From Somniosus microcephalus (taxonomy: Eukaryota): DNA of 64,000 nucleotides. The notes under the pieces are model-generated. The model had not been told where the DNA came from, made no database searches, and saw only the letters and a program-made list of their open reading frames with translations. The stretch spans positions 341,744,001 through 341,808,000 of the forward strand of contig CM126204.1 in assembly GCA_052327205.1 (NCBI GenBank). The letters run 5' to 3'. Each line of letters opens with the position of its first letter. Positions within the stretch are counted from its first letter, which is position 1. Of the stretch, positions 43,956-46,607 are shown one piece after another. A program made the position numbers and the translations under genes.

Positions 43956-46607
43956 ATGCCTAAGCATGGTAACATCAACAACTTCGATGCCGAGGTGGAA
44001 GATTGGGCCACGTATGTAGAACGTATCGAGGTATATTGTGAGGCCAATAAAATAGAAGATGATGATAAAGCTATAACCTTGCTAAACTCGATGGGCGCGA
44101 AGACATACGGGTTATTGAAGCATCTTCTATCACCAGCTAAACCGGCGGATCAGACTTTCGATAATATTGTTGCTGTTCTGAAGGATCACTTGAACCCCAC
44201 ACCGCTGATGTTGGCGGAACGATTCAAATTTTATGCGAGAACGCAACGGAAAGAAGAAAGCAACGCGGAATACTTGGTCGAACTGCGTAGACTAGCGAAA
44301 TACTGCCAGTTTGGAGGAAATCTGACAAAGGCATTGCGAGACAAGTTCGTGTGCAGGCTGTCGAAGGAAGGAACGCAAAAGCGACTACTCGAAGAGAACG
44401 ACCTTACACTTGAGAGGGCTGTCCTTATTGCAGCATCGCACGAAGCCGCAGCGAAAGGAACTGCGGAAATGCAGCTAAAGGCAGCGGTACTCAGTGTGGA
44501 TCAAATTACTTCGGGTACAACGAAATGTTATCGTTGTGGGAAGACAACACACGACCAGAACCAATGCTTGTTTAAAAACCAGGAATGTAGAAAATGTGGC
44601 AAACTGGGTCACATAGCTAAAGTATGCCGGTCAGGAAAGAAGACCAACAACCAAAAAAAGCCATCACAGGGAAAGTACAACAAAGTACACAAGGTGGCTG
44701 AGAAGAGTTCAGACGAACAGAATTCGGATTCAGACCCAAACGGCCAGGAACTGGGTAGTCTGAGAATTCACAATGTGAGTAAGAAAGCTGACCTACAAAC
44801 TATCTGGGTCATGCTAAAAATAGCCGGAGTCCAAGTGAAAATGGAGTTGGACACTGGATCAGCCCTATCAGTCATAAATCGAAGGGATTACAACCGGCTA
44901 TTCTCACATATACCCTTGAGAGATACCAAGTTCGTATTGCAGACATACATGGGGCATAAAGTGTACCCCATGGGGAAGATAAGAGTCAAGGTGAGAGACA
45001 GGGGCAAAGAACACCCAGGAATGGACTTATATGTACTACCTGAGGGAGGACCACCACTTCTAGGACGGGAGTGGATCAAGAAAATAGACATGGAATGGCA
45101 CTACCTAAAAGCAATAACGAGTGAGGACTCGGTGCAGACAATCAGCTCAGACTCTGAAACGGATGACGATGAGACCAGCCCAAATATGAAAGACAAGTCT
45201 AAAATGAACTTGCTGACTGAGGTTAGAAAAACGAAGGCGTGCATAAAGGCTTATGCTCCAGAGGAGAACAAAGTTTCAGAACAGAATTCCACTGAACAAC
45301 AACAACATAGTTTGACAGAGAATTCTGAGTCTGTCCAGTTTACAGACATATACATTACTGAGGAACACCGAGCTCAAACTCAACTTTATTTCAAATTACA
45401 ACAGCAATTAGAACAATTGAGTTGCCATCTTGAGCAAGAGACAACAGCAATGAAAAAGTTCTTGGACACAGAGTGGGAGAATCTGGAAAGACAACAGAAG
45501 CAGCTGGGGGAGGAAATGGAGCAGGAGCACACAAACTGTCTGCGCGAGGAGGCCAAACGAATCAAAGCTGATTCGGTCTCTGAAGGTGCGTGCTCTAATC
45601 TAGTGGAGCAAGATGTTCAGCAACTGAAGGCGCTTGTTAGCAGGTTGCAGGCAGAAAAGGCTGATTTGGTCGCCATGAATTCCGAGCTCCTACTGAAGTC
45701 GGGTGCAGCATCACCGGACGATTCATTTGTGGAAATTCGAATGGTGGAGGCTGCGGATGATGGCGAAGTAGAAGCAGCAAAGGGACCCCAGTGCAAGGTT
45801 CTAAACAGCCCTGCAGCTAATGGGAAATGGATGATGGCAGAAGAGTTAACAGCCAGCCAACTCCTCCAGGGCAAGGTTATAAACAGCCCTGTAGTTAATG
45901 GAAAAGGGATGATGGCAGAAGAGTTAACAGTCAGCCAACTCATTCATATGCTGAGGGATAAAACTCTAAAATGGGAAAAACTTAAATACGAGCCTCAATC
46001 TTCAAAGGGAAGGGAGCTCTCAAAAGTCATTGGAAGAGCTGAGGTGGCAACCCAGACTGAGAAGTCTGCAGCAGAACAGCCCTTGGATGCCAAAAGTACG
46101 CTGACGCACGGAAATGTAGAACAACAGAATACTGAAACAGCTACTTCAGTAGAGGGATTGAATAGTCCGATCAATCAATCTCCGAATGAAGTTGAAGTAT
46201 TGAAATCACAAATGAGGTCATTAGTAAAAGACTTGCAGGAAGCCCAGAAAAAGCGGGATGAATCTGAACGCATGATGAAGTCTCTTCAGGACAGATGTCG
46301 GGATTTGGAACAAAAGTCGGCTAACGTCCAGCTGGGTAAGGAGGAAATAGAAGACCCTCTCGCTGGCCTAGCTCAGGACGACACCGAATATTACCATGAT
46401 CTGTTGAGTGGCACTGAATATTACGAGGACCTGGTCTGCCCAGCTTGTGCCGAGAACTCCCAAAGTGCCGAAATCAGGATGAATCACTTAAAGTCTAAGG
46501 AACATAGGGAGATGGTGGCGTTACAGCTGGCAGCTGACAATGGAGCTCCGAGAGTCTCCAAGAAGCAAAAAAAGGAAAAGACGAAGCAGAAGATGATAAC
46601 CATCTGA
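43956..46607 (+). CDS. Gag (two CCHC knuckles)-aspartic protease fused in frame to STK10/SLK-like coiled coil, optineurin fragment (LIR) and DNAJC21-like zinc finger; 883 aa from ATG
   Basis: [14 protein letters not shown] / [114 protein letters not shown]. Confidence 0.88.

Follow-up and report, generated by a model that had tools for sequence, protein, structure and literature searches.

A DNAJC21-derived zinc finger, probably a passenger, in a non-autonomous Gypsy-type retrotransposon family of Somniosus microcephalus

The window, a stretch of 64,000 nucleotides from Somniosus microcephalus, holds a long open reading frame (ORF) whose C-terminal end was interpreted, in a reading made from the sequence alone, as a C2H2 zinc finger and basic tail resembling DNAJC21. 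This raises the question of how a piece of a host gene came to close the ORF of a retroelement, and whether the finger does anything there.

The element and its open reading frame

The C-terminal peptide described by the sequence-only reading is present as written, at the end of an 883-aa forward-strand ORF at 43956-46607. The ORF lies within an element carrying the two LTRs, target-site duplication, primer-binding-site (PBS)-like sequence and polypurine tract that define a Gypsy-type LTR retrotransposon (Table 1). A Pfam profile scan of the 883 residues detected no reverse transcriptase (RT), RNase H, integrase or J domain (DnaJ match); after the protease, the ORF shows a PKK match followed by optineurin (OPTN) matches. 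The copy is thus pol-less, and related parent-type copies have the order PR-RT-RH-IN, as assigned from translated motifs with no HMM scan. The window element is of the Gypsy type and has no env.

Table 1. Features of the element and of its host-derived cargo, in window coordinates.
Feature	Position	Strand	Remarks
Whole element	42387-47263	+	non-autonomous Gypsy-type LTR retrotransposon, young
Target-site duplication CTTTC, left copy	42382..42386	+	
5' LTR, 256 nt, TG...CA	42387..42642	+	2 mismatches/256 nt vs 3' LTR
PBS-like TGGCGACGAG, immediately 3' of LTR	42644..42653	+	putative role, from position
Long leader containing short tandem repeats	42654..43955	+	repeat search
Single ORF, 883 aa: Gag-protease-host cargo	43956..46607	+	
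Gag, two CCHC knuckles (aa 190-205, 210-225)	43956..44640	+	omega 0.32
Aspartyl protease, with the end of the parental sequence	44808..45118	+	omega 0.36
Spliced STK10/SLK exons E2 (middle), E4 and E5, internally deleted, PKK match	45119..45571	+	87-90% to C8:167.19 Mb
Host optineurin, six spliced exons, 78-nt internal duplication	45563..46348	+	79-95% to C17:85879057-85890195
STK10/SLK exon E1 remnant, 15 nt (EEIED), between OPTN and DNAJC21	46341..46355	+	
DNAJC21-like piece 5' of exon A, including first half of finger	46356..46474	+	origin inferred from continuity
Tandem duplication, 30 nt (TEYYHDL / TEYYEDL)	46382..46433	+	some subfamilies only
C2H2 finger C-x2-C-x12-H-x5-H	46437..46505	+	ligands kept, core Phe->Ser, net charge 0
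DNAJC21 exon A (host C1:4792918-4792793), lacking the acidic spacer	46475..46552	+	
DNAJC21 exon B (host C1:4790521-4790482)	46553..46592	+	spliced to A; RVSKKQK, then frame shift
Return to STK10/SLK, E1 end and E2 start, 8-nt microhomology AGCAGAAG	46585..46790	+	74%, mostly after stop, decaying
Integrase C-terminal tail, remnant	46791..46860	+	
Polypurine tract	46995..47007	+	
3' LTR	47008..47263	+	
Target-site duplication CTTTC, right copy	47264..47268	+	TSD = 5 bp

Spliced DNAJC21 exons and the state of the finger

A search pattern combining an intron end with the second half of the finger has a sole genome-wide match in the host, at C1:4792888, within an exon of 126 nt (exon A) which is separated by a 2,271-nt intron from an exon of 40 nt (exon B), both with AG/GT ends. 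When four sister copies of the element were aligned to the spliced A+B sequence, L089 and L091 were identical at 163 of 166 nt (98%), with slightly fewer matches for L087 and L092; since these sisters match two spliced exons across the intron, the finger and the KKQK patch came through RNA. The window copy is a derived form, with 84% identity in the first 50 nt of exon A and 90% in the 40 nt of exon B, and likewise reads across the A-B junction with the intron removed. The comparison with host DNAJC21 that had been proposed as a check therefore returned a match to exons of the same genome, which is more than chance.

The donor gene is spread over C1 in pieces. A host exon with a second C2H2 finger lies beyond exon B, at about C1:4771460, and J-domain exons are found at C1:2675265-2653240 on the minus strand, the same strand as the finger exons. 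We take these J-domain exons at C1:2.67 Mb to be those of DNAJC21, the name coming partly from the human sequence. They are 2.1 Mb apart from the finger exons (C1:4.77-4.79 Mb), with gaps beside both sets and the middle exons missing. For placing the human splice site c.983+1, the residue numbering is our assumption. One base of exon A precedes MKNH, which puts a phase-2 intron inside the finger and fits the human DNAJC21 splice site c.983+1 (PMC6710477), and a J domain together with a second C2H2 finger, as seen on one strand of C1, is the DNAJC21 layout given in the cited part of the same source. On sequence grounds, the DNAJC21 origin of the second half of the finger and of the KKQK patch is regarded as settled. 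Because a pattern search of the assembly gave no match for the host exon carrying CPAC (there is an assembly gap 1 kb upstream of exon A), a DNAJC21 origin of the first half of the finger is suggested by continuity. Two other candidates were set aside: a PF21884 match on C17 belongs to a different J-protein gene, presumably DNAJC2, with no match to the finger, and C1:4905425, considered as a host exon, turned out to be another copy of the element (L169).

Outside protein searches alone did not name the donor, so that the DNAJC21 assignment rests on the genome's own exons. Queried with the window finger, a representative protein library returned two weak unrelated hits, neither of them DNAJC21, a PDB search returned generic fingers only (E 0.3-0.4) and an Atlas search generic zf-C2H2_jaz clusters only. 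Single-sequence AlphaFold models were uninformative, both for the window finger (pLDDT 63.5) and for a host-like control, which was predicted as one long helix.

In the window copy, all four C/C/H/H ligands are indeed kept (C-x2-C-x12-H-x5-H, 46437-46505) and the TEYYHDL / TEYYEDL duplication is real, consisting of two 22-nt copies, 82% alike and 30 nt apart, at 46382 and 46412. The acidic spacer thought to be shortened has changed, but by outright deletion (net 48 nt), and the tail reads RVSKKQK in the DNAJC21 frame as supposed, whereas its final 11 residues stem from a frameshift into STK10/SLK sequence. DNAJC21 mRNA as a third donor, alongside the STK10/SLK kinase and optineurin, holds for the origin, through the intron-less exon match, but not for the function, as the finger is near neutral (omega about 0.96) and degraded. 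A sister copy (tabulated as both L087 and L147) scores 35-35.7 bits against Pfam zf-C2H2_jaz; in the window the score is 19.3 bits, below the cut-off of 22.6, the conserved aromatic core residue is missing (Phe to Ser relative to the host-like copy L086), and the net charge of the finger is 0, compared with +4 in L086 and -4 in L169, which belongs to another subfamily. With the core Phe and the basic charge lost and the Pfam cut-off missed, RNA binding by the window finger is doubtful and this part of the earlier interpretation appears weak. The window protein, having no J domain, cannot act as an Hsp70 co-chaperone.

The basic C-terminus would be a better candidate for a selected feature, since the last 18 residues carry a net charge of +7 to +10 in most long ORFs of the family (+5 in L125) and this state was reached by two routes, through exon B or through a drifted integrase tail. 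Shortened copies of the family end otherwise than in a basic patch.

Kinase scaffold, parent family and further cargo

The remaining cargo is built on exons of an STK10/SLK-type kinase, which in the window stand out of order, the later exons first and the start of E2 last. The sequence-only reading had missed that the DNAJC21 piece sits inside a kinase RNA that is back-spliced and circularly permuted. This permuted order was found in 24 of 24 mapped element loci, window included, these loci having been selected by PKK or finger matches and hence not being a random sample. The host donor is a STE20 kinase on C8, where the PKK domain and the upstream kinase exons were located; exon E1 matches both SLK and STK10 chains (E 1.1e-7 to 1.3e-7). 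The best PKK match on C3 (L085) was rejected as kinase donor. Exons E1-E5 amount to 1,245 nt, or 415 codons with no stop, and each is single-copy in a 110-kb host stretch with no assembly gap; the exon preceding E1 in the host gene is 15.5 kb further upstream, and AG is all that it has in common with the end of E5.

The simplest state is found in locus L125, which reads E2(mid)-E3-E4-E5-E1-E2(start) at 98-99% identity to the host and holds exactly one 1,245-nt lap in place of the RT, RNase H and integrase of the parent, with the E5 donor joined exactly to the E1 acceptor in a precise back-splice junction. A 50-nt probe for this junction gave 23 matches (up to 6 mismatches) among 165 loci, seven of which were exact and represent six distinct copies. 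The probe found no junction in the window copy, where OPTN sits at that spot; the exact back-splice sites that characterize retrocopies of circular RNA (circRNA) are thus present in sister copies, and the window keeps the permuted order only. From these arrangements, we infer a circular RNA template for the kinase lap. Reads across a host back-splice would be confounded with element RNA.

The pattern of protease end followed by non-kinase sequence occurs at 17 places, three of which were examined. Two of these (L166 and L167) are parent-type copies whose protease end, integrase tail and LTR share 98-100% identity with L125 and which carry RT, RNase H and integrase between the shared ends, both copies being broken; the third (L168) is a further chimeric copy. 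Parent and kinase exon have 11 nt in common at the RT start; at the integrase tail they agree at 7 of 8 nt, both switch points falling at E2 position 159. As L125 enters and leaves the kinase at this one site, exactly one unit stands in frame where the parent has about 3.3 kb of pol.

The optineurin piece consists of six consecutive exons with the introns removed, entered from the kinase at a 9-nt microhomology and left towards the kinase at an 8-nt microhomology that is clearest in sister L153. Removed introns, flanking element halves and microsimilarity at the switches, the marks of LTR-mediated retrocopies, are therefore all found, microsimilarity being judged at the right DNAJC21, OPTN, kinase and parent junctions. 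Other subfamilies carry titin-like Ig domains or coiled-coil pieces, some of them cingulin-like; Atlas and PDB searches gave no name for the coiled-coil cargo of L111. Cargo is freely swapped among subfamilies, some of which are without the finger or OPTN.

The family is carried by three organisms and is abundant both as DNA and as RNA. In a search of 6.45 billion bases, a back-splice 31-mer occurred exactly 846 times and a 23-mer from the DNAJC21 part 5,411 times, with 0 occurrences of either control; the C-terminal 79 residues gave 15,386 first-look candidates, 150 of which were scored, all with at least 89% identity. Two RNA runs from a carrier species holding 52-62% of the words of the window were aligned at a threshold of 88% likeness. 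Family RNA made up 25,988 of 16.65 million records in the stranded run X7 and 20,018 of 14.40 million in the second run X8, covering 30 of 30 bins, most reads being 90-95% alike to the window. The sense to antisense ratio was about 13:1 in X7, also over the finger, and both strands were about equal in X8. This signal applies to the family and is no proof for the window copy; in the cargo bins, some reads may come from host mRNA. Element copies will swamp the annotation and expression estimates of DNAJC21, OPTN and STK10/SLK in this lineage and will mimic back-splice reads.

Selection, origin and known systems

Selection was assessed by comparing synonymous and non-synonymous differences with 1000-2000 neutral placements of the same substitutions. 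Gag (omega 0.32) and protease (0.36) of the window were compared with L125 as reference rather than with the parent Gag, and none of 1000 neutral placements gave a synonymous count as high as the one observed; by this measure, both are under purifying selection, with omega about 0.3. The frame of the ORF is also maintained relative to L153, four of four net indels between the protease and 46523 being multiples of three, compared with zero of three after the stop; the last 80 coding bases hold three frame-shifting indels.

The cargo is where the evidence divides, as it may have been selected for the element, with a zinc-bound finger and basic tail, acting on a C-terminal product released by the protease, aiding nuclear import or RNA packaging, and with the OPTN and kinase coiled coils interfering with autophagy or innate signalling. 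Such a benefit is considered unlikely. Relative to the host, omega in the window is 1.20 for the kinase and 0.75 for OPTN, computed in two parts since the host assembly is out of frame at the O3/O4 boundary, with a total of 0.82 (P 0.10); the DNAJC21 cargo gives 0.53 over 37 codons (P 0.07), and the total cargo 0.78 (P 0.025) in one other copy and 0.74 (P 0.018) in a second. Apparent single-base errors and gaps are seen in nearby host genes of the assembly. Over the 23 codons of the finger, omega is 0.96 between the window and L086, with a range of 0.96-1.9 among comparisons, which speaks against a benefit, as does the fall in finger charge from +4 through 0 to -4. The ligands, on the other hand, survive although, of the 19 other finger residues, 10 have changed in the window and 13 in L169, an outcome with P 0.10 and 0.048, respectively, under neutral placement, and 0.036 for the window-L169 pair, and all four are kept in 14 of 14 tabulated finger haplotypes as well as in L169. 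This retention is only suggestive, 25 loci having been selected with the Pfam finger model and the window itself having been flagged for its finger; together with the slightly low cargo omega, it gives a hint of some constraint. A benefit would further fit the two routes to a basic C-terminus, the abundant sense RNA, the greater number of copies bearing DNAJC21 than the junction (5,411 vs 846 exact matches), and the DSFVEI motif kept in the window, which we take to be an LIR. Exon B, however, is read in different frames across subfamilies and, being A-rich, is basic in any frame, and the free exchange of cargo, finger and OPTN included, likewise argues against it. It is therefore proposed that the finger is probably a passenger drifting near neutrality, and that it is probably not a new functional module in itself.

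The finger is, with good confidence, understood as a passenger fragment of DNAJC21 mRNA in a non-autonomous Gypsy-type family that grew by repeated template switching. In a first step, RT would have left the integrase tail of the parent at a short match to back-spliced STK10/SLK RNA (E1-E5), gone round it exactly once and switched back to the parent where RT begins, replacing about 3.3 kb of RT-RNaseH-integrase in frame; the resulting sequence is observed, and it is from this that we infer the circular template. Copying may have ended after one lap because RNase H had removed the entry site, so that RT met a gap and had to jump. In a second step, visible in the copies themselves, the scaffold was reloaded, DNAJC21 mRNA entering E1 and OPTN mRNA later replacing the back-splice junction, with switches at 8-9-nt microhomologies where testable, and other subfamilies taking titin-like Ig domains and coiled coils. 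In a third step, the element would make its own Gag and protease, which probably favour its own RNA in packaging, with RT and integrase supplied by autonomous relatives. The cargo would be selected mainly for one open frame and probably for a basic C-terminus. Nesting suggests that circle capture (L125) was followed by internal deletions, insertion of DNAJC21 into E1 (L150), and replacement of the junction by OPTN (L152, L153), and then, in the window type, by the 78-nt and 30-nt duplications, deletion of the acidic spacer and a stop that comes sooner.

The same E5-E1 junction could have been present in a linear template with no circle involved, either through duplication in tandem in the genome or in an mRNA that was trans-spliced or had repeated exons. 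The junction sequence is identical either way, non-colinear junctions can arise otherwise, as Dong et al. caution in the cited part of their report (PMC4897178), and gaps and what look like single-base errors affect nearby host genes in the assembly. A linear template nonetheless appears quite improbable, as none of the five exons occurs more than once in the 110-kb stretch, and as entry and exit at the same nucleotide, giving exactly one unit, are explained directly by a circle. A chance likeness to DNAJC21, a finger from another jaz-type gene or a DNA-level chimera, suggested by the generic matches of the window finger taken alone, is scarcely credible and is already refuted by the 98% identity of the sisters to host exons across a removed intron, unless the exons on C1, where J-domain and second C2H2 exons share one strand in the DNAJC21 layout (PMC6710477), belong to another gene.

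Under the proposed template switching, pieces of at least three verified host genes have been spread to hundreds or thousands of loci, presenting LTR-mediated capture as a repeated, nested, in-frame process whose copies are mainly sense-transcribed in one RNA run (X7) of the carrier species. A bolder version, in which one-lap capture of a circular RNA created an open-frame landing pad that samples the transcriptome (DNAJC21, optineurin, titin-like, cingulin-like and others) and in which finger and basic tail were selected for spread, is offered tentatively and is, as a whole, somewhat unlikely. If it were true, the Gag-protease element would parasitize its parent with great success and would form an exon-shuffling system, with thousands of copies in the genome of a vertebrate.

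In gag-onc transducing retroviruses and in maize Bs1, host mRNA joins or replaces retroelement coding sequence, and plant TR-GAG elements are non-autonomous LTR elements with LTRs, Gag and protease and no RT or integrase. The present family has the same gene set as TR-GAG elements but resides in an animal genome and had its pol replaced in frame by host RNA. In relation to DNAJC21/Jjj1 (PMC6710477), as far as the cited account goes, the window protein has the finger and KKQK but neither J domain nor second finger. No description of the family or of the STK10/SLK circle was found in the literature searched; Repbase and the supplements of Tan et al. 2016 and Dong et al. 2016, which lie outside this scope, may hold comparable cases. 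LTR-mediated capture and circRNA pseudogenes are known, and it is the base-resolved, amplified and serially loaded form that was not found in that literature.

The LTR-mediated retrocopies described by Tan et al. 2016 (PMC5131818), who also cite maize Bs1, consist in the cited account of spliced mRNA between discontinuous element halves with microsimilarity at the switches, may have several donors per locus (in one mouse case as many as four genes), are sense-transcribed and often in frame, and number few per species. Spliced pieces, element halves, microsimilarity, multiple donors and sense RNA are shared with the present family, whereas here a chimera founded a family of thousands of copies, was serially reloaded and kept its Gag-protease under selection. 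Crocodilian endogenous retroviruses (ERVs) that captured KIT-ligand and nectin3 (PMC4299795) similarly have host mRNA in retroelement coding sequence, spreading with it; in the cited account, these are near-complete single genes in few copies, with ORFs under purifying selection, in contrast to the nested, near-neutral fragments carried here by a Gypsy-type retrotransposon without env. The circRNA-derived pseudogenes of Dong et al. 2016 (PMC4897178) are LTR-associated, with 33 circRFWD2 junction copies in mouse, and their mechanism is left as mysterious in the cited part of the report. A donor-to-upstream-acceptor junction, LTR association and multiple copies are common to both, whereas here the parent, both switch points and the exact one-lap length are visible, with Gag-protease reading on in frame into the lap and the junction occurring at least 846 times. 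The one-lap length offers a concrete and testable prediction on RNase H-forced template switching, and the donor exons, parent element and both switch points, taken together, address the route from circRNA to retrocopy left open in that account (PMC4897178).

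Possible exchange with a second helper

At the 3' end of many subfamilies (genomic loci L086-L110, sister copies of the element), 66 nt of the integrase-tail share 98% identity with a second autonomous family, whose Gag-protease is only about 66% alike. This points to recombination with a different helper.

Insertion site, RNA variants and donor loci

The window element is inserted in an older repeat, presumably an interspersed one, which continues on both sides. Additional family variants were found in RNA reads: they either lack most of OPTN or contain the 30-nt unit (duplicated in tandem before the finger) one more time. 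Host DNAJC21 lies in two parts 2.1 Mb apart on contig C1, with assembly gaps adjoining both and the middle exons missing; the split is probably a scaffolding error. Host OPTN exons O3 and O4 apparently hold one extra base each relative to the element copies, shifting the frame, and these bases are possibly assembly errors. The host STK10/SLK exon E3 ends in a GC donor.

Coordinates of family members, donor loci and RNA joints (G000, the genome assembly; C, its contigs)
Feature	Location	Remark
Second autonomous family, copy	G000:C1:4778500-4783330	
Ig-bearing copy, example	G000:C8:76215001-76223000	I-set Ig in E1
L152	G000:C3:66238001-66246000	
Host DNAJC21	G000:C1:2.65-2.68 Mb, 4.77-4.79 Mb	
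Host OPTN O3, O4	G000:C17:85884793-85885365	
STK10/SLK E3 donor	G000:C8:167193683	GC
Flanking repeat	window:42180-42381, 47269-47420	
RNA joints marking family variants	window:45500-46329, 45605-45916, 46376-46405	RNA reads

Inserts and cargo of sister subfamilies

Downstream of the protease, L114 and L117 carry an insert with a C-x2-C...H...C motif, which also holds a stretch that may resemble KMT2A around a taspase site. Copy L152 contains an inserted LINE-like endonuclease region, and its open frame (at least 1,338 aa) continues beyond the cargo into this insert.

A Myosin_tail_1-like coiled coil, presumably cingulin-like, sits inside scaffold exon E5 in L147-L149 and L086-L095. Most OPTN cargo of L111-L113 is replaced by two other coiled-coil pieces (about 400 aa), to which PDB and Atlas searches gave no name and which we assume to be EVI5-like and RAI14/UACA-like. 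Sister subfamilies L114-L117 and L122-L124 hold two to three I-set Ig domains in frame within scaffold exon E1; the best PDB match of these domains is titin (E 5.5e-44).
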